Source: an uncultured Porphyromonadaceae bacterium (GTDB taxonomy: Bacteria; Bacteroidota; Bacteroidia; Bacteroidales; Muribaculaceae). From it: a DNA stretch of 64,000 nt. Positions 3,267-56,839 of the stretch are shown here, one piece after another. The position numbers and the translations under genes are program-made. Under the pieces are notes generated by a model. That model saw nothing but the letters and a program-made list of their open reading frames with translations. It had not been told where the DNA came from and did not search any database. The first letter of the stretch is position 1. Each line of letters starts with the position of its first letter. The DNA is taken from assembly GCA_947175425.1 (NCBI GenBank), contig CAMWMR010000006.1, forward strand, positions 19,878 to 83,877, given 5' to 3'.

Positions 3267-4742
3267 ATGAGTCAGGCAATTATTGTAATAATTACCATTG
3301 CGGCATATTTTATGCTGCTCATGGGAGTATCGTACTTTGCCTCGCGCGGCAGCGACAACTCCACATTCTTCACCGGCAACCGCAAAGCACCGTGGCCCGT
3401 TGTGGCCTTCGCCATGATTGGAGCGGCCATTTCCGGAGTAACATTCATTTCGGTTCCCGGCATGGTTGTGGCAAACGGCTACGCCTATCTGCAGATGGTT
3501 CTCGGATTTATAGTTGGATATTTTGTTATAGCATTCCTGCTCATTCCGTTGTTCTACAAACGAAACCTGCTTTCCATTTACGGGTATCTTGAAGAACGCT
3601 TCGGCCCCAACACCTACCGCACAGGCGCATGGTTTTTCTTTGTTTCCAAAATGCTCGGCGCCGCAGTACGCTTCTTTGTAGTGTGTGCCGTGCTTCAGCT
3701 GCTGGTATTCGCACCGCTTCACATTCCGTTTGTATTCAATGTAATTGTAACAATAGCGCTTATATGGCTCTACACCGTACAGGGAGGCGTAAAAACAATT
3801 ATATGGACCGACACCCTCAAGAGTTTCTGTCTTATAATGTCGGTTATACTGTGCATTTTCTTTGTGGCCACCAACCTCGGCTTCAACTTCGGGGAGATGA
3901 CCGATGCAATTTCATCGCATCCTACTGCACGAATGTTCTTCTTCGACAACCCCAAGGAAGGCACCTACTTCTGGAAACAGTTCCTTGCAGGCGTTTTCAT
4001 GGCAATTGCCATTAACGGCCTCGACCAGGACATGATGCAGCGCAACCTCGCATGCCGCGACAGCCGACAGAGCCAAAAAAACATGATTGTAAGCGGCATA
4101 GTACAGTTCTTTGTAATTGCACTGTTCCTGCTGCTCGGCACAATGCTGGTTATATTCCTCGATGCAAAGGAAATTGCACGTCCCGAAAAGAGCGATGAAA
4201 TTTTCGGAATGGTGGCACAGCATCCCGACGTTCCCGTTGTGGTACTCATTCTGTTTGTCCTCGGTCTTATAGCCGCCGCCTACTCGGCAGCCGGCTCGGC
4301 AATAACTTCGCTTACCACATCGTTCACCGTCGATATTCTCGAAGCCCACAAAAAACACAACGATGAAAAGCTCACTCGCGTCCGCAAAGGCGTACACGTG
4401 GCAATGTCGGCAATTATGGGACTTGTTATTATCGCATTCTATTATCTCAGCAACCAGGATGCCATTTCGGCGGTGTATACGCTCGCCTCATATACTTACG
4501 GTCCCATTCTCGGATTGTTCGTATACGGCATGTTCTGCAAAAAGCCTGTACACGACCGTTTTGTCCCCTTGGTGTGCATCCTCGCGCCCTGCCTGTCGTG
4601 GGTTCTTCAGTACACTTTGCGCGAATGGGCAGGCTACCACACCAGCTTCGAACTGCTCATTTTCAATGCGCTGTTTACCATAGCAGGTCTGCGCCTTCTC
4701 TCAATCGGCCGATGCGCCGTTGCTTCGCGACAAACCGCCTGA
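3267..4742 (+). CDS. sodium:solute symporter (SSF) family transporter
   Basis: 491-aa polytopic membrane ORF starting 3 nt after namZ. Composition and length are typical of the SSF family. Confidence 0.75.
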   Translation: MSQAIIVIITIAAYFMLLMGVSYFASRGSDNSTFFTGNRKAPWPVVAFAMIGAAISGVTFISVPGMVVANGYAYLQMVLGFIVGYFVIAFLLIPLFYKRNLLSIYGYLEERFGPNTYRTGAWFFFVSKMLGAAVRFFVVCAVLQLLVFAPLHIPFVFNVIVTIALIWLYTVQGGVKTIIWTDTLKSFCLIMSVILCIFFVATNLGFNFGEMTDAISSHPTARMFFFDNPKEGTYFWKQFLAGVFMAIAINGLDQDMMQRNLACRDSRQSQKNMIVSGIVQFFVIALFLLLGTMLVIFLDAKEIARPEKSDEIFGMVAQHPDVPVVVLILFVLGLIAAAYSAAGSAITSLTTSFTVDILEAHKKHNDEKLTRVRKGVHVAMSAIMGLVIIAFYYLSNQDAISAVYTLASYTYGPILGLFVYGMFCKKPVHDRFVPLVCILAPCLSWVLQYTLREWAGYHTSFELLIFNALFTIAGLRLLSIGRCAVASRQTA

Positions 4743-5655: not shown

Positions 5656-6152
5656 AGCCCCTCGCAGGCACTTTCAAGCAAATCAAGAACAAGTTCAAAG
5701 CCTTCGGCTCCTTCGTAATAGGGGTCGGGAATATAATCGTAGCGGCTTGCACAACGAATAAAATCGGCCATGCAGAAAATCTTTTCCTCATCCTCGGGCG
5801 AGGGAGCCATGCGGCGAAGATTCCTTTCATTATCGGCATCCATGGCGATTATAAGGTCGAAACGTTCGAAATCCGCTGTTTTTACCTGCCGGCAAATATG
5901 ATCCAGTTCATACCCGCGTCGTCTTGCATGGATACGCATACGTTTGTCGGGTAACTGTCCGACATGCCAACCGCCGGTGCCCGCCGAATCTATAACCCAA
6001 CGATGAGAGGCGCCATGAGCGGCCACAACTGCATTCATAATACCGTCGGCTGCCGGAGAACGGCAAATATTGCCCAGGCACACAAACAACACGCGAACCT
6101 TATCGCTTGCGGCAAGGCTCGAAAGATATTCCTGTTGACGTTTGGTAATCAT
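5634..6152 (-). CDS. low-molecular-weight protein-tyrosine phosphatase
   Basis: P-loop CLGNICRSP (CX5R-S) and a DPYY general-acid motif. 172 aa. The 3' end overlaps the convergent WYL gene by 22 nt. Confidence 0.9.
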   Translation of the reverse strand: MITKRQQEYLSSLAASDKVRVLFVCLGNICRSPAADGIMNAVVAAHGASHRWVIDSAGTGGWHVGQLPDKRMRIHARRRGYELDHICRQVKTADFERFDLIIAMDADNERNLRRMAPSPEDEEKIFCMADFIRCASRYDYIPDPYYEGAEGFELVLDLLESACEGLYASLSE

Positions 6153-6246
6153 TCTGCAAAAATATAAAACAGCTTTCTAATCTACAAATCGAACGTCATA
6201 ACAGCGCTATGTGAGAACAGTTTTTGCTCACTAAAATAAGTTTTTG

Positions 6247-6254
6247 TATATTTG
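6247..6254 (+). promoter_or_regulatory. Bacteroidetes -7 promoter box (TAtaTTTG) upstream of lysS
   Basis: TATATTTG lies 56 nt upstream of the lysS ATG in a 157-bp divergent intergenic region. Confidence 0.5.
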
Positions 6255-6309
6255 CACATTAATTGAGGCCGAAGTGCCATTTCCTAACGATTAACTGCTT
6301 TATACAAAT

Positions 6310-8040
6310 ATGAACGCACCCGAATTGAGCGAACAGGAACAAATACGCCGCAACAGCATGGCTGAACTGCGCCGAATGGGCATTGAGCCCTATCCTGCCG
6401 CAGAATACAAAGTTACAGGATACAGCGATGAAATAAAAGACGGTTTCTCCGATGAAGCTCCCGCCCGTGAAGTGGCTGTGGCAGGTCGTATTATGAGCCG
6501 CCGAATTATGGGAAAAGCCTCTTTTGTTGAACTTCAGGACTCCAAAGGCCGCATACAGATTTATATTTCCCGCGATGAAATTTGCCCCGACGAAAACAAG
6601 GACTTGTATAACATCGTTTTCAAGAAGCTCCTGGACATCGGCGACTTCATTGGCATCAGCGGATACGTATTCCGTACACAAACCGGCGAAATATCAATCC
6701 ACGCCCGCGAGCTTACCGTGCTGAGCAAATCACTTCGCCCGCTGCCTATTGTAAAAATAAAGGACGGTGTTACATACGATGCTTTCGACGACCCCGAGCT
6801 GCGCTATCGCCGCCGCTATGTGGATTTGGTTGTAAACGACGCTGCAAAACAAATATTCCTAAAGCGCACAAAAGTTTACAACTCAATGCGCGAATACTTC
6901 AATCAGGCAGGATATATCGAGGTTGAAACCCCTATCCTCCAGTCCATTCCCGGCGGCGCTTCGGCTCGTCCGTTCATCACTCACCACAACGCGCTGGACA
7001 TTCCGCTGTACCTCCGCATTGCCGACGAACTTTACCTCAAGCGTCTCATTGTAGGCGGCTTCGAAGGGGTTTACGAATTCTCCAAGAACTTCCGTAACGA
7101 AGGCATGGACCGCACTCACAATCCCGAGTTCACTTGCATGGAGATTTATGTGGCCTACAAGGACTACAACTGGATGATGAACTTTACCGAACGCATGCTC
7201 GAAAAAATATGCATGGACGTAAACGGCACCACCGAAGTAAAAGTAGGCGACAACACCATAAGCTTCAAAGCTCCCTTCCCCCGCGTTACAATGGCTCAGG
7301 CCATTAAGGAGCACACCGGCGTGGACATTACCGGAATGGATGAGGAACAGCTCCGCCAAACAGCCAAAGACCTTGGAATTGAAGTGGACGAAACAATGGG
7401 CAAAGGCAAACTGATTGACGAGATTTTCGGCGAAAAATGCGAAGGCCTCTACATTCAGCCCACATTCATCACCGACTACCCCATTGAAATGTCGCCTCTC
7501 ACAAAACGTCACCGCGACAATCCCGAACTTACCGAACGCTTTGAGCTCATGGTTAACGGCAAGGAGCTTGCAAATGCTTACTCGGAGCTTAACGACCCTA
7601 TCGACCAGTACGAACGCTTTGTAGAACAAATGCGCCTTGGCGAAAAAGGCGACGACGAGGCCATGATTATTGATGCCGACTTTATCCGCGCGCTCGAATA
7701 CGGTATGCCTCCCACATCGGGTATGGGTATCGGTATGGACCGTCTTGTAATGCTCATGACCGGACAGACTGCAATCCAGGAAGTTCTTCTCTTCCCCCAG
7801 ATGCGCCCTGAAAAAGTTGAAAAACGCGACAGCGCCGAAGTTTTCGTTGCAGCCGGTATACCCGAGGAATGGGTGGCCCCGCTGCAGAAATGCGGTGTGC
7901 TCACCGTGGCTGCACTGGCTCCGATGAACCCCAACAAACTCTTCCAGGAACTTTGCGGTTACAATAAGAAAAACAAGCTCGGTCTCACCAATCCCAAGCC
8001 CGAAGACGTGGCTGCATGGGTGGAGGCCGCCAAGCAATAA
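6310..8040 (+). CDS. lysS: lysine--tRNA ligase (class II)
   Basis: 576 aa. Has an OB-fold anticodon-binding N-terminus and class II core motifs ([26 protein letters not shown]). The C-terminal extension is typical of Bacteroidetes LysS. Confidence 0.95.
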
Positions 8041-8042
8041 TC

Positions 8043-9047
8043 ATGGATACAAAACAATTCCCGGGAAACATAGCAGTGATGGGCGGCGGCAGCTGGGCTA
8101 CCGCCCTCGCAAAGCTGCTTATGCAGAATTGCGAGACCATACTGTGGTACATGCGTCGCGACGACCGTATCGACGATTTCAAGCGCCTGCACCATAACCC
8201 GGCCTACCTCACCGATGTAAATTTCGATATTGAACGCATCGAGTTTTCATCCGATATAAACTACGTCTGCAATCAGGCCGACACATTGCTCTTGGTAATG
8301 CCGTCGCCCTACTTCAAGGACCATGTGGACAAAATCACCGTGGACATCTCGCAGAAAGCCGTCGTTTCGGCCGTAAAAGGCATTGTCCCCGACAGTAACG
8401 AGCTCGTAACGGATTACATGGCACGTGTTTTCGGCATTGCGCCCGAAAAAAATCTTGTCATCTCCGGCCCCTGTCATGCCGAGGAAGTTGCACTCGACCG
8501 CCCCAGCTATCTCACTGTGGGATGCGCCGACCTTGACCTGGCCGCCGGATTCGCAGAATGCGTAGCGGGGAAAAACACCCATGCCATTACCTCGACCGAC
8601 GTGGAGGGTATTGAGTACGCAGCCGTTCTTAAAAACGTCTATGCCATTGCCGCCGGAATTATACACGGCATGAAGACAGGCGACAACATATGCGCGATTC
8701 TCATTTCCAACGCAATTCGCGAAATGGAACGTTTTTTGGACGCCGTTGCTCCGCGACACCGTCAGATTTGCGACTCCGTATATCTCGGCGACCTACTCGT
8801 TACGGCCTACTCGCGCTTCTCCCGAAACCACAACTTCGGTTCAATGATTGGCAAAGGATATTCCGTAAAAGCCGCACGCATGGAAATGGAACAGACTGCC
8901 GAGGGCTACTACGGCGCAAAATGTATCCACGACATCAACACAGCATATGGCGTTGACATGCCTATTGCCGAGGCTGTATACAATATATTATATAAAGGAG
9001 TACCCGCTCAAAGGGCAATTAAAGCTATTAGCAGGCAACTGGACTGA
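8043..9047 (+). CDS. gpsA: NAD(P)H-dependent glycerol-3-phosphate dehydrogenase
   Basis: ORF 8016..9047. Preferred start is MDTKQF (ATG 8043), just after the lysS stop. Carries the dinucleotide-binding motif VMGGGSWATALA. Confidence 0.9.
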   Translation: MDTKQFPGNIAVMGGGSWATALAKLLMQNCETILWYMRRDDRIDDFKRLHHNPAYLTDVNFDIERIEFSSDINYVCNQADTLLLVMPSPYFKDHVDKITVDISQKAVVSAVKGIVPDSNELVTDYMARVFGIAPEKNLVISGPCHAEEVALDRPSYLTVGCADLDLAAGFAECVAGKNTHAITSTDVEGIEYAAVLKNVYAIAAGIIHGMKTGDNICAILISNAIREMERFLDAVAPRHRQICDSVYLGDLLVTAYSRFSRNHNFGSMIGKGYSVKAARMEMEQTAEGYYGAKCIHDINTAYGVDMPIAEAVYNILYKGVPAQRAIKAISRQLD

Positions 9048-35491: not shown

Positions 35492-36025
35492 ATGAGCAAG
35501 ATTAAAAGTATTGTTTTCTGGATAATCTATGCACTGTTGTGCATAGGCATTTATGTGTGGGGGCTCATCCTTTACATGCGCACCTTTGTACAATGGTGGA
35601 TGCCCGTGGTTTTCGGACTTGCGGCAGCATTTATTCTTTGGTTTCCATGGCGCTCCAAATGGAAATTCATAAAAAGCCGCATTGGCGCGTTCTGCGCCCA
35701 CATGGCACTTTTTTCTATAATTGCCGGCACCGGTGTAATGGCTCTGAACTACTACAGCGCCGATAACTCTAAAAAAAGTACCCAAAACGGTGAGGTTATT
35801 CACAAATATACCGAACTGCACAAACCAAGTCACCGTGTAGGACGTCGCCGAGTATATTCCAAGCCATATACCGAGTATTATCTACGCATACAGCTTGAAA
35901 ACGGCTTATACAAAGATTTTAAAGTAACCCAAAAGCGCTATAACCGCACACGCAGCGGCTCGACAATCCCCATGGACATAACCCCCGGCGCCCTCGGCTA
36001 TCCGGTAACCGACTTCTCGATATGA
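35492..36025 (+). CDS. hypothetical membrane protein
   Basis: 177 aa. Three predicted TM helices are followed by a basic soluble tail. No family recognised. Confidence 0.45.
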   Translation: MSKIKSIVFWIIYALLCIGIYVWGLILYMRTFVQWWMPVVFGLAAAFILWFPWRSKWKFIKSRIGAFCAHMALFSIIAGTGVMALNYYSADNSKKSTQNGEVIHKYTELHKPSHRVGRRRVYSKPYTEYYLRIQLENGLYKDFKVTQKRYNRTRSGSTIPMDITPGALGYPVTDFSI

Positions 36026-36066
36026 GCACAGCGGCTGACAATCATTCGATTATCAGCCGCTGCAAG

Positions 36067-36148
36067 TACCCGGACCCGGGATCGAACCGGGATGGGTTGC
36101 CCCAACGGTGTTTGAGACCGTCGCGTCTACCGATTCCGCCATCCGGGC
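36067..36148 (-). tRNA. tRNA-Leu (anticodon CAA), long variable arm, CCA not encoded
   Basis: Reverse complement is GCCCGGATGGCGGAATCGGTAGACGCGACGGTCTCAAACACCGTTGGGGCAACCCATCCCGGTTCGATCCCGGGTCCGGGTA. Anticodon stem is ACGGT/ACCGT with loop CTCAAAC, and the T-loop is TTCGATC. 82 nt. Confidence 0.88.
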
Positions 36149-36156
36149 ATACGGTG

Positions 36157-36164
36157 CAAAGGTA
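36157..36164 (-). promoter_or_regulatory. Bacteroidetes -7 promoter box (TAccTTTG) for tRNA-Leu
   Basis: Plus strand CAAAGGTA is TACCTTTG on the minus strand, ending 8 nt upstream of the tRNA 5' end. Confidence 0.5.
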
Positions 36165-36210
36165 CAAACTATTTTTTTTCTGTGCAAATATTTTTCAACA
36201 TCGCGAAAAA

Positions 36211-36786
36211 TCAATTCGGCGACTGAGCCTCATTCAACGGTGTCATGTGATAGCCCAAAGCATTAAGCTCCATGGCCATGCCTGCAGAATACAGGGCATG
36301 CAGAGCCGCTATGTAGCATCCGAGGGCGGCTTCGGTTCCCGGCTCGACATGCTCGTGATTGATAAGGTTCAGCACGCAGGCGGCACAGTCGGCCACCAAA
36401 GCGGTAACTTTTTCGGCACTTTCGCCACGATAGCCCAGAAGTTCCTCAACAACAGCTTCGTCCATATTATCGTAGCCTTTCATGTCGCGAAGCTCCTGAT
36501 AGTAATTATCGCGCACGTGATGCTTCTCCCAGTCGGTATCCCAATAGTAGGCCATACTCATTCCTATGAGCATCATCCAACCCAGAGACACCACAGGATA
36601 ATTCTGAAACTCGCGGGCACCGTCGGGAAGATATGCGCGTGCGACAAGAGGCCATTTCTCCTCCACATCGGGGCATTCGGGAACTATTGAATCCAAAGCG
36701 CCTTTGCTTTGAAGATATGATGTGAGACGTTCTCGAACTTTTTCCTCAAACTTGTCAACGAGTTCTTTGCTGTCGGAAGTATTCAT
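36211..36786 (-). CDS. hypothetical cytoplasmic protein
   Basis: ORF 36211..36855. Preferred start is MNTSDSKELV (ATG at 36786), because a TAatTTTG box (minus strand, 36860-36867) would place the TSS downstream of the upstream ATG. No family recognised. Confidence 0.5.
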   Translation of the reverse strand: MNTSDSKELVDKFEEKVRERLTSYLQSKGALDSIVPECPDVEEKWPLVARAYLPDGAREFQNYPVVSLGWMMLIGMSMAYYWDTDWEKHHVRDNYYQELRDMKGYDNMDEAVVEELLGYRGESAEKVTALVADCAACVLNLINHEHVEPGTEAALGCYIAALHALYSAGMAMELNALGYHMTPLNEAQSPN

Positions 36787-50827: not shown

Positions 50828-51646
50828 ATGGCCGACACAAACGACCGCTGGAGTGAAATAGAACACCTGCCCGAATGGGACGAGGAATTTTATCACATCT
50901 TTACCGCCAAGAAATTCGGCAAATGGGTGATGATAAAAACACTGCGCCCCGAATATGCCGATAATCCGCGCTATCAGGCAATGATAGAGCAGGAGTTCGA
51001 TGTGCGCTACAGCCTTGCGCATCCCAATATTGTTATGATTAACGATTTTGAGGATATTCCCGGCATAGGACGCTGTATTGTCACCGACGATGTGTACGGC
51101 GACAGTCTGCGAAAGCTCATCGACACCGGCAAAGTTACCCCGGCACATATCGAGCAGTTGCGTCATCAGCTTGTCAACGCTTTGGAATATATCCAGGGAA
51201 AACACATTGTGCATGCGCCGCTTACTCCCGACAACATTATTTTTACCGAAAACATAGGGAACCTCAAGCTCATAGATGTAGGCTTTGAACAGAAACCGTC
51301 GCTGTCGCATCAATCCACAGCCGACGACATCTATAACTACGGTCTTGTGCTTACCGCCGCGCTTGACGCCTGCAAGAATTACGACAGCACCCTGCGCCGT
51401 GTGGCGCACAAATGCTGCGACCCGGAACCGCGCCGCCGCTATCGCGACATGCAGCAGGTACACCTTGCTCTGGAAAACAGGAGTACCCGGTACATCTATC
51501 TTGCAATCATTGCTTTTCTGGTGCTTATGGTTCTGCTGTTATTATGGCTTAAATCGCCTTACAGCCCCAAACCGGCAACTCTGCACCCCGCACCGGCCAA
51601 TATAATCAATCATTTGTCAACATGTCTGTATACGTTCATCCTATAG
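50828..51646 (+). CDS. membrane-anchored protein-kinase-like protein with degenerate catalytic loop (predicted pseudokinase)
   Basis: Kinase-fold landmarks are WVMIKTL (beta3 Lys), HPNIV, HIVHAPLTPDNIIF in place of HRDLKPxN, and KLIDVGF in place of DFG. There is no Gly-rich loop. C-terminal TM helix YIYLAIIAFLVLMVLLLLWL. Confidence 0.6.
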   Translation: MADTNDRWSEIEHLPEWDEEFYHIFTAKKFGKWVMIKTLRPEYADNPRYQAMIEQEFDVRYSLAHPNIVMINDFEDIPGIGRCIVTDDVYGDSLRKLIDTGKVTPAHIEQLRHQLVNALEYIQGKHIVHAPLTPDNIIFTENIGNLKLIDVGFEQKPSLSHQSTADDIYNYGLVLTAALDACKNYDSTLRRVAHKCCDPEPRRRYRDMQQVHLALENRSTRYIYLAIIAFLVLMVLLLLWLKSPYSPKPATLHPAPANIINHLSTCLYTFIL

Positions 51647-52752
51647 CTGCCGACCCCGACCAGCTTAGCCAATATATCAATTTTTCCGTAAACCTGTACC
51701 GCGACGCACCCTGCTACGTGCCCCCGCTTTACATCGACCAGCTTGCCACTCTCACTCCCGAAAAAAACCCGGCTTTCGATTTTTGCGAGGCTTGCTCGTT
51801 CATGGCTTGGCGCAATGGAGAACCGGTGGGCGTGATTACCGCAATAGAGAACAAAGCCGCCAATGAAAAAACCGGCCGCAAGCAAATGCGCTTCGGCTTT
51901 ATGGATTTTATCGACGACAAAGAAGTTGTGGACGAGCTTTTCTACGCCGTTGCCGAATGGGGACGAAACCGGGGGCTAACCGAAATGGTTGGTCCCGTAG
52001 GATTCACCGACATGGATCCCGAAGGTATGCTCATCGAAGGTTTCGATGAAATGGGCACCATGGCGACAATCTACAATTATCCCTACTACCGCGACCACAT
52101 GGAACGAATGGGATTTGTAAAAGACGCCGACTGGGTTGAGTACCGCATAACTGTGCCCGATGCCGTGCCCGAAAAACATGCACGCATAGCCGAGATTGTG
52201 CGCCGCAAATATAATCTCAAAGTTGTTAAATACACCTCCAAGAAAAAAATCAAGGAAGAGTACGGGCACGCCATTTTCGATTTGGTTAACGAGGCTTACG
52301 CCGACCTCTACGGCTTTGTGCCTCTCACCGAACGCCAGATCGACCATTACATTGACCAATATCTTGGTGTTCTCCGCCTGGACGACGTTGTACTCATAGC
52401 CGATTCCGACGACAAACTCGTAGCCCTCGGCATTTCCATGCCTTCCCTTTCGCAGGCACTGCGCAAAAGCGGAGGCAAGCTGTTCCCCTTCGGTTGGTGG
52501 CACCTGCTCAAGGCAATCCGCGGAGCTTCCGATGTTGTCGACCTGCTGCTTATAGCAGTAAAACCCGAGTATCAGAACAAAGGAGTGAACGCGCTGCTTT
52601 TTGCCGACCTCATTCCGCGATACAATGCCAACGGCTACCGTTTCGCCGAAAGCAATGTTGAGCTCGAAGGCAACGAGAACGTTCAGAAGCAGTGGGAATA
52701 CTTCGAACGCAGGCAGCACCGCCGCCGCCGCGCTTGGATAAAGCCGCTCTGA
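51622..52752 (+). CDS. GNAT-like N-acyltransferase family protein (assignment tentative)
   Basis: 376 aa. Resembles the roughly 380-aa Bacteroidetes proteins usually annotated as GNAT acetyltransferases (segments VGVITAIENKAANEKTG and IAVKPEYQNKGVNALL). Overlaps the upstream gene by 25 nt. Confidence 0.45.
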   Translation: MSVYVHPIAADPDQLSQYINFSVNLYRDAPCYVPPLYIDQLATLTPEKNPAFDFCEACSFMAWRNGEPVGVITAIENKAANEKTGRKQMRFGFMDFIDDKEVVDELFYAVAEWGRNRGLTEMVGPVGFTDMDPEGMLIEGFDEMGTMATIYNYPYYRDHMERMGFVKDADWVEYRITVPDAVPEKHARIAEIVRRKYNLKVVKYTSKKKIKEEYGHAIFDLVNEAYADLYGFVPLTERQIDHYIDQYLGVLRLDDVVLIADSDDKLVALGISMPSLSQALRKSGGKLFPFGWWHLLKAIRGASDVVDLLLIAVKPEYQNKGVNALLFADLIPRYNANGYRFAESNVELEGNENVQKQWEYFERRQHRRRRAWIKPL

Positions 52753-52767
52753 CGAACACTTTTTTTG
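52741..52767. repeat. left copy of a 27-nt imperfect direct repeat (covers the stop codon of the GNAT-like gene)
   Basis: AAGCCGCTCTGACGAACACTTTTTTTG. 25 of 27 positions are identical to 54207-54233. Confidence 0.85.
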
Positions 52768-52829
52768 TGAAGCATAAGGCTCTCCACAAAGAATAAAAAT
52801 AACAGTTGCCGACAACAACAAACTCAAAA

Positions 52830-52837
52830 TATTTTTG
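52830..52837 (+). promoter_or_regulatory. Bacteroidetes -7 promoter box (TAttTTTG) for the ATPase/TOPRIM-like cassette
   Basis: TATTTTTG lies 15 nt upstream of ATG 52852, implying a very short leader. Confidence 0.5.
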
Positions 52838-52851
52838 CAAATTTGCACATT

Positions 52852-53850
52852 ATGGATAAATCCGCACCAAGCAATCCAACGAGCGTAACCATTAAGAACT
52901 TTAAGTCTGTAAAATCGGTAACGCTCTCCGACTGTCGGCGCATTAATGTGCTGATAGGCAGACCCAATGTCGGCAAAAGCAACATACTTGAAGCTCTCGC
53001 TCTGTTTGATGTGCCATATATGGTAAATTCATCAAACAAATCCCTGAAAAACCTTCTCCGTATTGAGAATGCGTCAGACCTGTTTCACAACGGAGTTGCC
53101 ACAACTCCAATAGAAGTATCTGCCGACGGCAATACAATCACTGTTCTCCGAAGTGCGAACAGCGGACTTTCGGTTGACATCTCTATACAAGGCGAGGTTT
53201 CCAAGTATGCATTTACTTCGTCCCTGACTTTGTCAACAAAGAAAGAGCCTGCTATTCTGCCGGATGTTCTTACGTATTTTTTTCCGAAACACTTTGTCCC
53301 GGAATCTTCCAACATTGGATTTCTGCAGCCTCCGTCGGGTGGAAATCTTATGGAGACGGTTGCAAATTTACCTGCTCTGAAATCCGGCCTTGCGGAACTG
53401 TTCCACGGCTACGGATTGAAGATGATGTTCGATGCAGGCTCCCGACAGATAAAGGCTATGAGAGAAAACGGCCTTGATATGTTCCTTGTGCCGTTCAGTT
53501 CTCTTGCAGATTCATTACAGCGACTGATATTCTATAAAGCTGCGATTGAAAGTAACCGAAACAAGGTTTTATGTTTTGAAGAACCGGAAGCCCATACCTT
53601 CCCGCCTTACATAGCAAATGTGGTAAACGATATTATTGCAGGCGAAAGCAACCGGTTTTTCATAACAACCCACAGCCCGTATGTCATGAGTTCATTACTT
53701 GAAAGTGCAGGCACTGATTTGGCTGTGTATGTCGTTGACATGGAGGACAACTCGACAGTAGTCAAGCGTCTTACCGACAAGCAACTTCAAGAAGCCTATG
53801 ACAATGGAATGGATATGTTCTATAATCTTGAAGCATATCTTGGCAAATGA
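52852..53850 (+). CDS. ABC/OLD-type AAA ATPase (AAA_15/AAA_21-like), short form
   Basis: ORF 52843..53850 (TTG). Preferred start is ATG 52852. Has an N-terminal VTIKNFKSVKSVTL strand, Walker A GRPNVGKS (nt 52957-52980), signature-like SLADSLQRL, Walker B VLCFEEPEAH and H-loop ITTHSP. Confidence 0.8.
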   Translation: MDKSAPSNPTSVTIKNFKSVKSVTLSDCRRINVLIGRPNVGKSNILEALALFDVPYMVNSSNKSLKNLLRIENASDLFHNGVATTPIEVSADGNTITVLRSANSGLSVDISIQGEVSKYAFTSSLTLSTKKEPAILPDVLTYFFPKHFVPESSNIGFLQPPSGGNLMETVANLPALKSGLAELFHGYGLKMMFDAGSRQIKAMRENGLDMFLVPFSSLADSLQRLIFYKAAIESNRNKVLCFEEPEAHTFPPYIANVVNDIIAGESNRFFITTHSPYVMSSLLESAGTDLAVYVVDMEDNSTVVKRLTDKQLQEAYDNGMDMFYNLEAYLGK

Positions 53851-54188
53851 ACCAACGTGCCGATTTCATAATACCGGAGTGTTACATTGACACAAATCTT
53901 GTGGAGACTTTGGTATGCACGGGCGGCTGCAACCACCAAAAAGGCTGTAATCAGGTTGCCAAAGTCATGCAGGAAAAATTTGCCGACCGTTTCGCCGTTG
54001 GAATAATTGATGCAGATAAAAGACGTCCGGGATATTTGAATGAGTTTAATGAGATAGCGTCCAGCGAGCATATAAGATGGAATCGCTCATCTCCTATCTT
54101 GCCGATAATACATATATGGCATCCAATGACAGAATTTCAGAGATATTCCAAACCAACGAGTAAATCGCCCTCATGTATCATTGTTTAA
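53847..54188 (+). CDS. small TOPRIM-like protein (113 aa), possibly frameshifted or truncated at the C-terminus
   Basis: The start overlaps the ATPase stop (ATGA). FIIPECYIDTNLVETL (E-x3-D) and AVGIIDADKR (DxD) fit the two TOPRIM metal-binding motifs. The last ~40 aa have an odd composition, and an alternative frame reads more protein-like. Confidence 0.45.
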   Translation: MNQRADFIIPECYIDTNLVETLVCTGGCNHQKGCNQVAKVMQEKFADRFAVGIIDADKRRPGYLNEFNEIASSEHIRWNRSSPILPIIHIWHPMTEFQRYSKPTSKSPSCIIV

Positions 54189-54206
54189 CCGTGAGTCGTA
54201 GGGCAG

Positions 54207-54233
54207 AAGCCGTTCTGATGAACACTTTTTTTG
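54207..54233. repeat. right copy of the 27-nt imperfect direct repeat
   Basis: AAGCCGTTCTGATGAACACTTTTTTTG. Retains a TGA at the same relative position as the GNAT-like gene stop. Confidence 0.85.
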
Positions 54234-54271
54234 CCTACGATAGGGCATATTTACAAGAAAATAACTAAATT

Positions 54272-54327
54272 AGCGGTGCTGATTCGTCGTACAGCGATGT
54301 TACCGACGTATACAGCACCGCTTTTTA
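54272..54327 (+). terminator. rho-independent terminator (long stem-loop plus T-run)
   Basis: AGCGGTGCTG (54272-54281) pairs with CAGCACCGCT (54313-54322). There is an internal CGTCG/CGACG helix, and TTTTT follows. Confidence 0.7.
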
Positions 54328-54349
54328 TCTATAATAAACCCACATTTCT

Positions 54350-55924
54350 ATGCTAAACAACCACCCAAAAGGCCTGATTCCCGCCGCGCTCAGTAACATG
54401 GGCGAGCGTTTCGGCTATTACATCATGAACGCCGTACTGGTGCTGTTCCTTTGCTCCAAGTTCGGCCTCTCGGGCGATACCAGCTCCCTTATCTACTCGT
54501 TTTTTTATGCCGGAATCTACATTTTAAGCCTTGTGGGCGGTACTATTGCCGACCGCACGCAAAATTACAAAGGAACCATTATAAACGGCCTCGTAATTAT
54601 GACGGCGGGGTATGCCCTGCTCTCCATTCCCATTCTCGCCACTTCCGAGAATACAAGCTGGCTGCTCACACTCACCTGTGTGGCGCTGTTTCTCATCGCT
54701 TTCGGCAACGGTCTGTTCAAGGGCAACCTTCAGGCTATTGTAGGCCAGCTCTACGACAATCCCCGCTACAGCGCACAACGCGACAGCGGTTTCCAGATTT
54801 TCTACGTATTCATCAACATCGGCGGCCTTGTAGCTCCTTTTGTGGCTCCTCTGCTCCGCAGCTGGTGGCTGGGTGAAAACGGAATGGTATACAATGCCGA
54901 TTTCCCCGAAAAATGTCATCAGTTCCTTAGCGTAACCAACAGCATGGCAGCCGAAAACATGGAAAACTTCTATGCTTTGGCAACTGCTGCCGGTCACACC
55001 GCAGGAACCGACATCACCGAGTTCTGCACACGCTATCTCGACGTGTTCAACACAGGTATTCACTACTCTTTCATTGCCTCTGTAGCGGCAATGCTCATTT
55101 CGCTTGTAATATTCATCAGCACCAAAAAGAGCCTCCCCAATCCTCCTGCAAAAGTAAAAGCAGAGGCACAGAATTACACCGCCGAGGAAAAACGTGCCAT
55201 GGCAAAAGAAATAAAGCAGCGCATGGCCGCCCTCTTTGCCGTGCTCGGCATTGTAATTTTCTTCTGGTTCTCGTTCCACCAGAACGGCACTTCGCTATCA
55301 CTCTTTGCCCGCGACTTTGTTGAAACCTCCACAATTCCGCCCGAAATATGGCAGGCCGTGAACCCCTTCTTTGTTATTGTGCTCACGCCCATTGTAATGT
55401 GGATATTCGCATCCCTCTCGCGTCGCGGCCGCGAAATAAGCACTCCCAAGAAAATCGGCATCGGTATGGGTCTTGCAGGCCTCGCCTACCTTTTCCTTGC
55501 CGTATACTGCTACATGCAGGGTTATCCTTCCGGCGACATGTTCCGCGAAATGGCTCCTGCAGCCAAGGAAACCCTCAAGGCCGGTCCCTGGGTACTTATC
55601 GCTCTCTATTTCTTCCTCACCGTTGCCGAGCTTTTCATCTCGCCGCTGGGACTCTCGTTTGTTTCCAAAGTTGCACCCCGTCATCTTCAGGGTCTCTGCC
55701 AGGGTCTTTGGCTCGGTGCCACAGCAATAGGCAACCTGCTTCTCTGGATTGGTCCGCTCATGTATAACAAATGGCCCGTATGGGAAGCATGGGGCGTATT
55801 CCTCGCCGTTTGCCTTGTATCCATGGGAGTTATGTTCGGCATGGTCAGCTGGCTCGAACGAGTTACAAGCGATGCTCCCGCCAAAGAAAAAACCATTGAA
55901 ACCGAAGAAGACAACGTTATTTAA
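54350..55924 (+). CDS. proton-dependent oligopeptide transporter (POT/PTR2 family MFS)
   Basis: PTR2 signature ExxERFxYY present as MGERFGYYIM. 524-aa polytopic ORF. Confidence 0.9.
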   Translation: MLNNHPKGLIPAALSNMGERFGYYIMNAVLVLFLCSKFGLSGDTSSLIYSFFYAGIYILSLVGGTIADRTQNYKGTIINGLVIMTAGYALLSIPILATSENTSWLLTLTCVALFLIAFGNGLFKGNLQAIVGQLYDNPRYSAQRDSGFQIFYVFINIGGLVAPFVAPLLRSWWLGENGMVYNADFPEKCHQFLSVTNSMAAENMENFYALATAAGHTAGTDITEFCTRYLDVFNTGIHYSFIASVAAMLISLVIFISTKKSLPNPPAKVKAEAQNYTAEEKRAMAKEIKQRMAALFAVLGIVIFFWFSFHQNGTSLSLFARDFVETSTIPPEIWQAVNPFFVIVLTPIVMWIFASLSRRGREISTPKKIGIGMGLAGLAYLFLAVYCYMQGYPSGDMFREMAPAAKETLKAGPWVLIALYFFLTVAELFISPLGLSFVSKVAPRHLQGLCQGLWLGATAIGNLLLWIGPLMYNKWPVWEAWGVFLAVCLVSMGVMFGMVSWLERVTSDAPAKEKTIETEEDNVI

Positions 55925-55942
55925 AATCACATTATTCACGCA

Positions 55943-55983
55943 GGGATTCCGTCTTGAAAAAGGCGGAATTCCCCGCGTTTTTT
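55943..55983 (+). terminator. probable rho-independent terminator after the POT gene
   Basis: Imperfect stem GGGATTCCG/CGGAATTCCC with one bulge, followed by TTTTTT. Confidence 0.5.
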
Positions 55984-55993
55984 ACTCACTGTT

Positions 55994-56839
55994 ATGCCGA
56001 AATTCATTCGAGCCGTACTCCTGTCGGTAATTCTATCCGTCTGCTTTCCGGTATCGGCACAAATTCTTGTCACCGGCGGAGGGGAAGCTCTCACCGAGGA
56101 CAGCGTTTTAAGAGACTTTTCAAACCAGCCATACTTCGGGCTGTATAAGGACAATTATTTCATTTTCGGGCCTTCCGTCGGGCCAAAGGCCAACAAACAG
56201 AACACCAACGTAAAATTTCAAATATCCATAGCGCAGCGTCTTACACGTTCCACACTTCCATGGGGCACATACCTGTATCTGTTCTACACACAAAAATGCT
56301 TTTGGAACGTTCTTGAAAATTCACTGCCGATGACCGACCTCAATTTCAACCCCGGTATAGGCATTACCAAACCTCTGTTTGTAAAAAACCGATATATAGG
56401 CAAACTCACATTTCTTGTGGAACACGAAAGCAACGGCCGCGACAGCATTGAATCGCGTTCGTGGAACCGTGTGGCACTTGCGGCAAACGTATTCGTCACA
56501 AAAAACCTTATGGTGCACGGCAAAATATGGGCGCCTATCGTGGACGGCGAGAACAACCGCGATATTGTTGATTACTGCGGCTTCTGGCAAGTCGGATTCC
56601 AGGCCATCAGCGACAACAAACGCTTCATAGGCGGCGTAACCGCTGTGAAACGCAAAGGCTGGAACCTTAACAGCAACATAGTTGTGGACCTTGCCTACCG
56701 CATTTTCAAACGCGACAACCAATATCTTTTCCTGCAGTTCTACAACGGATATGGCGAAGGGCTGCTGGAATACAATAAATTCCATTCGCAAATACGTATA
56801 GGGCTGCTTATAAGGCCAAAACTCTTCAGTGATTTCTAA
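55994..56839 (+). CDS. pldA: outer-membrane phospholipase A1
   Basis: Signal peptide, YKDNYFIFG, and the catalytic HxSNG motif as VEHESNGRD. 281 aa. Confidence 0.85.
   Translation: MPKFIRAVLLSVILSVCFPVSAQILVTGGGEALTEDSVLRDFSNQPYFGLYKDNYFIFGPSVGPKANKQNTNVKFQISIAQRLTRSTLPWGTYLYLFYTQKCFWNVLENSLPMTDLNFNPGIGITKPLFVKNRYIGKLTFLVEHESNGRDSIESRSWNRVALAANVFVTKNLMVHGKIWAPIVDGENNRDIVDYCGFWQVGFQAISDNKRFIGGVTAVKRKGWNLNSNIVVDLAYRIFKRDNQYLFLQFYNGYGEGLLEYNKFHSQIRIGLLIRPKLFSDF

Follow-up and report, generated by a model that had tools for sequence, protein, structure and literature searches.

A two-gene cassette inserted with a 27-bp target duplication at the 3′ end of an acetyltransferase gene in an uncultured Muribaculaceae bacterium

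Introduction

Defence islets without mobility genes have reportedly been described in chromosomal hotspots of the Escherichia coli and Pseudomonas pan-genomes, and transposons of the IS1634/IS1549 group of the IS4 family are accompanied by long target duplications. Both offer points of comparison for an insertion in a 64,000-nt stretch of DNA (the window) from an uncultured Porphyromonadaceae bacterium of the GTDB family Muribaculaceae (GenBank assembly GCA_947175425.1, contig CAMWMR010000006.1, positions 19,878–83,877), in which 1439 nt of cargo, a promoter-like region followed by a two-gene cassette (positions 52768–54206, forward strand), lie at the 3′ end of a gene for a GNAT-like acetyltransferase and between two copies of a 27-nt sequence. 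Like a defence islet, this cargo is strain-specific, low in G+C, of defence type and lodged between conserved core genes without a recombinase, relatives being empty at the same position. Unlike the islets, it does not occupy a recurrent hotspot (four of four conspecific genomes are empty, and other cargo was not observed), and it is bracketed by a clean 27-bp target duplication, which is not produced by homologous exchange through the flanks.

Other described elements share some of these traits and differ in others. A target duplication of tens of bp also flanks members of the IS1634/IS1549 group, but the window insert has no transposase, terminal inverted repeats or conserved termini. DNA transposons and elements resembling miniature inverted-repeat transposable elements are set apart by their terminal inverted repeats, absent here, and by the fact that the ends of the present cassette differ between contexts. 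Compared with an integron gene cassette, the window lacks a significant junction fold (attC), an array and an integrase, and compared with Xer-dependent dif/pdif modules (28 nt, with two inverted 11-nt arms and a 6-nt spacer) the 27-mer lacks arm symmetry. As in islands of the integrase type, the direct repeats (~27 nt) include the 3′ end of a gene that remains intact, and a single copy is found in the empty site; unlike in such islands, there is no integrase, no arm and no travelling att sequence, and the first copy is native rather than an element-borne replacement.

The insertion and its empty site

A sequence-only reading of the window had interpreted the locus as the scar left by an insertion at the 3′ end of the GNAT gene, and had predicted that an empty site would hold a single 27-mer followed directly by the terminator. 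This arrangement, with the gene of a POT-type peptide transporter next, was found in all four other genomes of the same species (L081, L082, L171 and L172), where the GNAT-to-POT gap is 131 nt, and the scar is confirmed by these four empty sites. L081, a 367-kb contig of GCA_964310145.1, and L082 were found by exact look-up of the POT protein, and L171 and L172, in which the gene arrangement is the same, through the GNAT protein cluster. In all four, the single 27-mer is followed by C(C/T)T(A/T)CGATAGGGCAT..., the shared terminator hairpin and the POT start. Upon blastn comparison, window segments 51000–52767 and 54207–56000 align to contiguous L081/L082 sequence and overlap by exactly the 27-mer. 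The window carries a clean insertion of 1466 nt, composed of 1439 nt of cargo absent from the four conspecific genomes and 27 nt of duplicated target. G+C content is 0.42–0.46 between the repeats versus 0.50–0.57 in the flanks, and the insert opens with TGAAGCATAAGG... at its left end and closes with ...GTCGTAGGGCAG at its right. No second occupied genome was found, and exact look-ups of the window GNAT protein and of the ATPase and partner proteins encoded by the cassette gave no matches; in a collection with one genome per species, which does not include the species of the window, the best match to the window GNAT was 80% identical.

The GNAT-like gene itself (51622–52752, forward strand; 376 aa; Pfam Acetyltransf_1, 1.2e-6) is intact, and its C-terminus ...AWIKPL is the same as in conspecific proteins P0243 and P0244. 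Its native right neighbour, the POT/PTR2 peptide transporter gene (54350–55924, forward strand; Pfam PTR2, 2.7e-49), encodes a protein identical in L081 and L082. The intrinsic terminator at 54272–54327 (forward strand), a hairpin followed by a T-run, lies in a segment (54200–54340) that folds at −42.5 kcal/mol (z = −4.7). It had been taken for the original terminator of the GNAT-like gene, and this is borne out by the four empty sites, in each of which that hairpin comes straight after the single 27-mer; the insertion has pushed it 1466 nt downstream. The GNAT gene is unchanged but without an adjacent terminator, and, with that terminator displaced, its transcripts probably run into the cassette.

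The repeat pair

Copy 1 of the repeat (52741–52767, AAGCCGCTCTGACGAACACTTTTTTTG) and copy 2 (54207–54233, AAGCCGTTCTGATGAACACTTTTTTTG), both on the forward strand, were recovered at the coordinates and with the 25 of 27 identical positions first described, at a start-to-start distance of 1466 nt. Copy 1 comprises the last three codons (9 coding bases) of the GNAT-like open reading frame (ORF), its TGA stop at 52750–52752, also correctly placed within the repeat from the outset, and 15 nt of 3′ flank. The AAG CCG TTC TGA of copy 2, earlier described as in-frame-looking, belongs to no ORF. Allowing for up to three mismatches, the 27-mer has exactly two matches in the window, against 0.00 expected from 100 dinucleotide-preserving shuffles, and the 14-nt core GAACACTTTTTTTG is confined to the two copies; according to a repeat finder, weak similarity between them stretches to 40 nt at 80% identity. 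Within the sequence covered (the window, the fetched loci and a viral contig collection) the 27-mer is not a dispersed repeat.

Copy 1 is an exact match to the single 27-mer of L172, the closest strain, and is free of window-private substitutions. The L171 27-mer differs from it at one position (A at position 14), and those of L081 and L082 have T at position 4. Copy 2 has C at position 4, as does copy 1, together with two C-to-T changes at 54213 and 54219, both private to the window (found in none of the four empty strains). Directly after copy 2, the window and L081 share 267 nt without a mismatch, and the rate of window-private substitutions in the flanks is 0.5–1.2%. A foreign GNAT allele ending in KPF was considered as the source of copy 2 and rejected, since none of the 124 close homologues of GNAT that were examined has this ending. 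Most simply, both copies would derive from local sequence, the non-coding one having mutated afterwards.

Tests for mobile-element features

The 1439 nt between the repeats are taken up by the ATPase gene and its partner, neither of which matches an integrase or transposase family (Pfam), confirming the earlier statement that no such gene is present there. Within the 64-kb window, no recombinase gene was evident by inspection of the ORF list, although no HMM search was made on those ORFs. The repeat finder returned no inverted repeats joining the insert ends, and no significant hairpin was detected at either junction on either strand (z between −0.8 and −1.7). On inspection, dif-like symmetry is missing from the 27-mer, in which AAGCCGCTCTG and the arm formed by the T-run are not inverted copies of each other, and attC-like and dif-like sites were both rejected for want of significant folds and arm symmetry. 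Carriage by a phage or plasmid was likewise rejected, with no relative on viral contigs and one weak plasmid match only. None of 22 other cassette loci scanned has a 27-mer-like site beside the cassette.

Other copies of the cassette (L091–L096 and L173, 88–92% nucleotide identity) align to the window from 52771–52794 to 54147–54208, the only gap being a 226-nt deletion. Since homology to these copies stops 0–3 nt from each repeat, there is no space for element arms. At the right end, where the window stops at ...CAGAA, the same sequence continues in L092 and L093 into the start of the neighbouring gene, so that the right breakpoint is arbitrary, and on the left the conserved part starts at differing points depending on context. 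The cassette is not self-mobile, being without a recombinase, terminal inverted repeats, a structured site or conserved termini. The sequence-only reading had named, as one of two options, an integrating element that restored the gene upon entry. This was not supported, since copy 1 is native (equal to L172), copy 2 departs from it by the two private C-to-T changes only, and there is neither a travelling site nor arms. Given the local sequence of both copies and the lack of a travelling 27-mer and of arms, the repeats look like a target duplication rather than the attL and attR of a site-specific element.

The GNAT 3′ end within and beyond the species

A variable cassette slot, the other arrangement suggested at the outset, found no support: four of four conspecifics are empty, none has other cargo, and other species have housekeeping-type genes downstream. 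Amylase and kinase-like genes are kept together with GNAT, upstream of it, in 80 Muribaculaceae loci, and in none of these does POT follow GNAT. In about 70 further species of Muribaculaceae, the genes that come next after GNAT form a few clade-specific arrangements and resemble signal peptidase, rsmH-ftsI, recA, ftsZ and similar genes (by sequence inspection, with no family search). The GNAT 3′ end was therefore rejected as a cross-species cargo hotspot, its downstream genes being clade-shared and housekeeping-like and a comparable insertion being present only in L047; judged by gene order, it is a synteny breakpoint and not a cargo slot. In L047 (Muribaculaceae bacterium Isolate-002 (NCI), SCEG01000008; positions 6001–8870), an intact GNAT gene is followed by a 1.3-kb stretch of low-GC DNA with two small ORFs without a family match. 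Beyond this lie a second, degraded copy of GNAT, of which 187 nt corresponding to the 3′ end (92.5% identity) and a piece covering residues ~60–90 are left, and then a terminator. This is, in another species, a duplicative insertion of larger size at the GNAT gene.

Identity between the window and its conspecifics varies along the locus. It is ~92% to the left and 97–98% to the right for L081 and L082, the deep divergence of which stops near position 52050, and ~98% on both sides for L171 and L172. Private substitutions occur in patches along the GNAT gene, nine for the window at 52051–52450, 14 for L172 at 52451–52740 and five for L171 at 51651–52050. For the 3′ half of the gene, the alignments suggest frequent short recombination imports. 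That the cassette came in together with a divergent left flank was considered and rejected, as L171 and L172 are ~98% identical on both sides yet empty, and private patches exist in empty strains too; the mosaicism is general and cannot be linked to the cassette.

Cargo genes

The conserved upstream region of the cassette (52815–52851, forward strand; alignment A1) includes a box at 52838–52845 that reads CAAATTTG in the window and TAAATTTG in seven of nine other aligned copies, a T-to-C change; the box may be a Bacteroides −7 promoter element (TAnnTTTG). The first gene (52852–53850, forward strand) encodes a full-length ABC-type ATPase of 332 aa belonging to the OLD/AbiL/PARIS class (Pfam AAA_15, 2.4e-17; AAA_21, 1.2e-11). 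Among PADLOC profiles it matches AbiLi best (1.1e-19), AriA (5.8e-19), and also ATPase-Toprim, HEC-01A, GajA and Old, with matches to AbiLi, AriA, GajA and Old ranging from 1e-19 to 1e-13. Its NCBIfam match to the retron Eco8 effector (1.1e-14) is far under the family cut-off, and its sole match in the PDB, the retron Eco8 OLD nuclease, covers the N-terminal ~45 residues only. Homologues at E < 1e-10 number 1135, the best among the matches listed covering 97–100% of the query. Many homologues are ~80% identical (one, from Lepagella muris, is found on at least 1000 contigs), and the closest ATPase in a database of 5.8 billion proteins is 91% identical.

The second gene (53847–54188, forward strand) is collinear with intact partners over its first 76 codons. 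Intact partners elsewhere have 179–180 aa and a 4-nt overlap with the ATPase stop, an overlap shared by the window ORF. A 226-nt out-of-frame deletion at 54073/54076, located between short imperfect repeats (as mapped against L093 and L173), interrupts the window gene, the original C-terminal codons of which run on in another frame to a TAA at 54161–54163, and this partner gene is thus a pseudogene. Full-length partners had no match in Pfam, PADLOC, NCBIfam or the PDB sequences (including a profile search against the PDB), and an AlphaFold model from truncated homologues (pLDDT 46) was too poor for use. In alignment A3, conserved N-terminal residues of the partner family are E11, C12, Y13, D15, E20, N29-H30-Q31, D55, D57 and K58, some invariant and others at 90% or above. 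The E...DxD pattern of E11, D55 and D57 suggests a resemblance to a Toprim-like site, one that finds no profile or structure support. Partner genes have been inactivated independently in several genomes: that of the window by its out-of-frame deletion, that of L173 (7169–7471) by a nonsense codon, and P0258 and P0283 by internal deletions. In the window and L173 an intact ATPase gene stands beside the broken partner. Repeated inactivation of this kind would be in keeping with a toxic effector prone to loss.

As in AbiL, PARIS and OLD systems, whose profiles the window ATPase matches, the genes form a translationally coupled two-gene operon with a small partner. Unlike in PARIS, full-length partners show no DUF4435 or AriB match even at E up to 10, and unlike in AbiL there is no AbiLii match, though AbiLi is the best PADLOC match of the ATPase. 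Unlike the OLD nucleases, the 332-aa ATPase has no fused Toprim nuclease, and the partner matches no Toprim model. By these profile comparisons, the pair can be assigned to neither AbiL nor PARIS. The cassette is probably of an anti-phage type, a class assigned from ATPase homology and operon form only, and the window copy would have no function as a system today.

The cassette in other Bacteroidales contexts

At least 19 unrelated groups of flanks were distinguished among some 30 cassette loci, and in context look-ups the ATPase and partner genes stand on their own, with unrelated chromosomal genes on either side. The L093 and L173 copies of the cassette start immediately behind the stop codon of folC, where the junction shows a 6-nt overlap (GATAAA), and in L091, L092, L094, L121 and L123 a T-run followed by GTA is found just upstream of the cassette. 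The L092 cassette adjoins PcfJ- and PcfK-like conjugative-element genes and lies between imperfect ~85-nt repeats (3820–3905 and 5839–5925) common to L091, L121 and L123, all three of which have the upstream one, and the L095 cassette lies between similar ~100-nt repeats (3813–3912 and 6033–6120). Near PcfJ/PcfK-type genes, both the cassette and unrelated cargo are found between ~85–100-nt imperfect direct repeats shared across loci, and loci of the L092/L095 type look like a repeat-bounded cargo array. Repetitive intergenic sequences have been reported for the Bacteroidales rAID-1 clusters (recombinase-associated acquired interbacterial defence arrays; bioRxiv 10.1101/471110), and the L092 and L095 copies resemble these in lying between repeated intergenic sequences of such length. 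Unlike in rAID-1, no XerD-like recombinase was seen beside any cassette copy, and the window repeats are duplicated local target and not an array repeat.

Flanking direct repeats were considered as a trait of the cassette family and rejected, being present only in L092, L095/L096 and L128 among the 22 loci and of array or dispersed type. These repeats are longer and imperfect, none is a clean duplication or resembles the 27-mer, and that of L128 is a locally dispersed CGCGGAG-type repeat. With regard to target duplication length, the window provides the one clean 27-bp case, most other loci being without a flanking repeat, and the comparison with an empty site covers the window only.

Three further observations concern individual sequences. 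In L098 and L106 the cassette occupies the same site in two species, one of which has ~2.6 kb of extra sequence directly downstream (about 5500–8213 in L106). L094 (ODYJ01004655.1) starts at positions 1–28 with an apparent Illumina adapter (CTTTCCCTACACGACGCTCTTCCGATCT), so that its left end would be an assembly artefact. Elsewhere in the window, the translation of the longest ORF at 36022–36690 looks, by inspection, like reading across tRNA genes.

Origin of the insertion

The locus probably, though with considerable room for doubt, reflects a one-off illegitimate, non-site-specific insertion with target duplication, followed by decay. A fragment with the promoter-like region and the two-gene anti-phage-type cassette, derived from a copy like those beside conjugative-element genes, would have entered the lineage of this strain at a point 15 nt beyond the stop codon of GNAT. 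The insertion duplicated 27 bp of target, so that the gene end recurs after the cargo, just before the original terminator. The duplication may have arisen when a break with a 27-nt stagger was filled in, or through two replicative template switches 27 nt apart at short microhomologies. Microhomologies at the junctions consist of a T-run on the left (...CTTTTTTTG, ending in G) and a 2-nt AA on the right. Decay would then have comprised the frameshifting 226-nt partner deletion, the T-to-C change in the upstream box and the two C-to-T changes in non-coding copy 2. A single illegitimate event is suggested by the arbitrary breakpoints, the AA overlap, the left T-run shared upstream in L091, L092, L094, L121 and L123, and the GATAAA at folC. 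Several points weigh against this account. The 27-bp duplication is far longer than those made by ordinary transposases, and neither an enzyme nor an intermediate has been identified. The left-junction microhomology would require the loss of ~18–20 nt present in copies of the conjugative-element type. Only one event has been compared with its empty site, and flanking direct repeats occur also at L092, L095/L096 and L128, though only at these among the 22 other loci scanned. Finally, the private changes in copy 2 (two in 27 nt) lie above the local rate, with P ~0.02–0.04, or ~0.2 at a 3% neutral rate, an excess that fits a partial origin of copy 2 from another molecule.

That same excess is counted in favour of a rather unlikely alternative, site-specific or Campbell-type integration in trans, by which a circular cassette with its own 27-mer (AAGCCGTTCTGAT GAACACTTTTTTTG) would have recombined with the chromosomal 27-mer through a crossover in the identical right half. 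The recombinase would be encoded elsewhere, e.g., on a conjugative element, and the two copies would be attL and attR. Both mismatches are confined to the left-hand 13 nt of copy 2, and the 267 nt that come after this copy match L081 perfectly, as expected if the left part of attR were element-derived; a 27-nt identity segment at a gene 3′ end, which is typical of tyrosine-integrase islands, and the weak 40-nt extension of the repeat also speak for such an event. However, nothing resembling the 27-mer was found beside the cassette at the 22 other loci scanned or in viral contigs, no arm sequences lie between the repeats and the conserved cassette, hairpins and dif-like symmetry are missing, copy 2 has the strain-type C at position 4, and no recombinase gene is evident in the ORF list of the 64-kb window (by inspection, without an HMM search). 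A highly improbable view holds the cassette to be what remains of a larger island or conjugative element with an integrase, which would have integrated at the 3′ end of GNAT and then lost all but the defence cargo by internal deletion. Direct repeats that include the gene 3′ end, an empty site in relatives, close cassette copies in a conjugative-element context and the larger duplicative insertion at GNAT in L047 are in keeping with it, but it requires two deletions, one ending 0–3 nt from the left repeat and the other precisely at the right one, which would have to leave just the promoter-like region and a two-gene unit that is conserved elsewhere, and no island-end sequences are left. It is also quite unlikely that the ~1.7-kb unit of promoter-like region, ATPase and partner is a non-autonomous mobile defence module, which a trans-acting enzyme would transfer between conjugative elements and chromosomes of Bacteroidales, although such movement would explain why the unit stands alone in at least 19 contexts. 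The enzyme, perhaps encoded by a conjugative element, would then cut with a stagger of ~27 bp, preferably after stop codons or T-runs, a proposal that is just as doubtful.

A different question is how this strain acquired the insertion. The event may be older and have taken place in an unsampled related lineage, the occupied allele having reached the strain by homologous recombination through the GNAT and POT flanks, an unlikely course compatible with either an illegitimate or a trans-integration origin. Such an import is in line with the strong mosaicism of the locus within the species (~92% identity to L081/L082 on the left and 97–98% on the right, ~98% to L171/L172 on both sides) and with the window patch of nine private substitutions at 52051–52450. 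With the closest ATPase only 91% identical and the partner already broken, the insertion would not be brand new, and greater age would explain the two changes in copy 2. Nevertheless, similar private patches in empty strains (14 substitutions in L172, five in L171) indicate mosaicism that is not linked to the cassette, and a second occupied genome was not found.

Significance

The finding is a strain-specific gene gain of a familiar and fairly ordinary kind, in which the duplication is unusually long and the cargo uncharacterised but widespread. It provides a base-pair-resolved case of a defence-type pair without mobility genes entering the chromosome of a gut commensal, with occupied and empty alleles within one species. 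It also draws attention to a very widespread two-gene system of Bacteroidales, the partner of which belongs to no described family, and which may be an anti-phage system. Should further insertions prove to share the ~27-bp duplication, this would point to a trans-acting integration mechanism.

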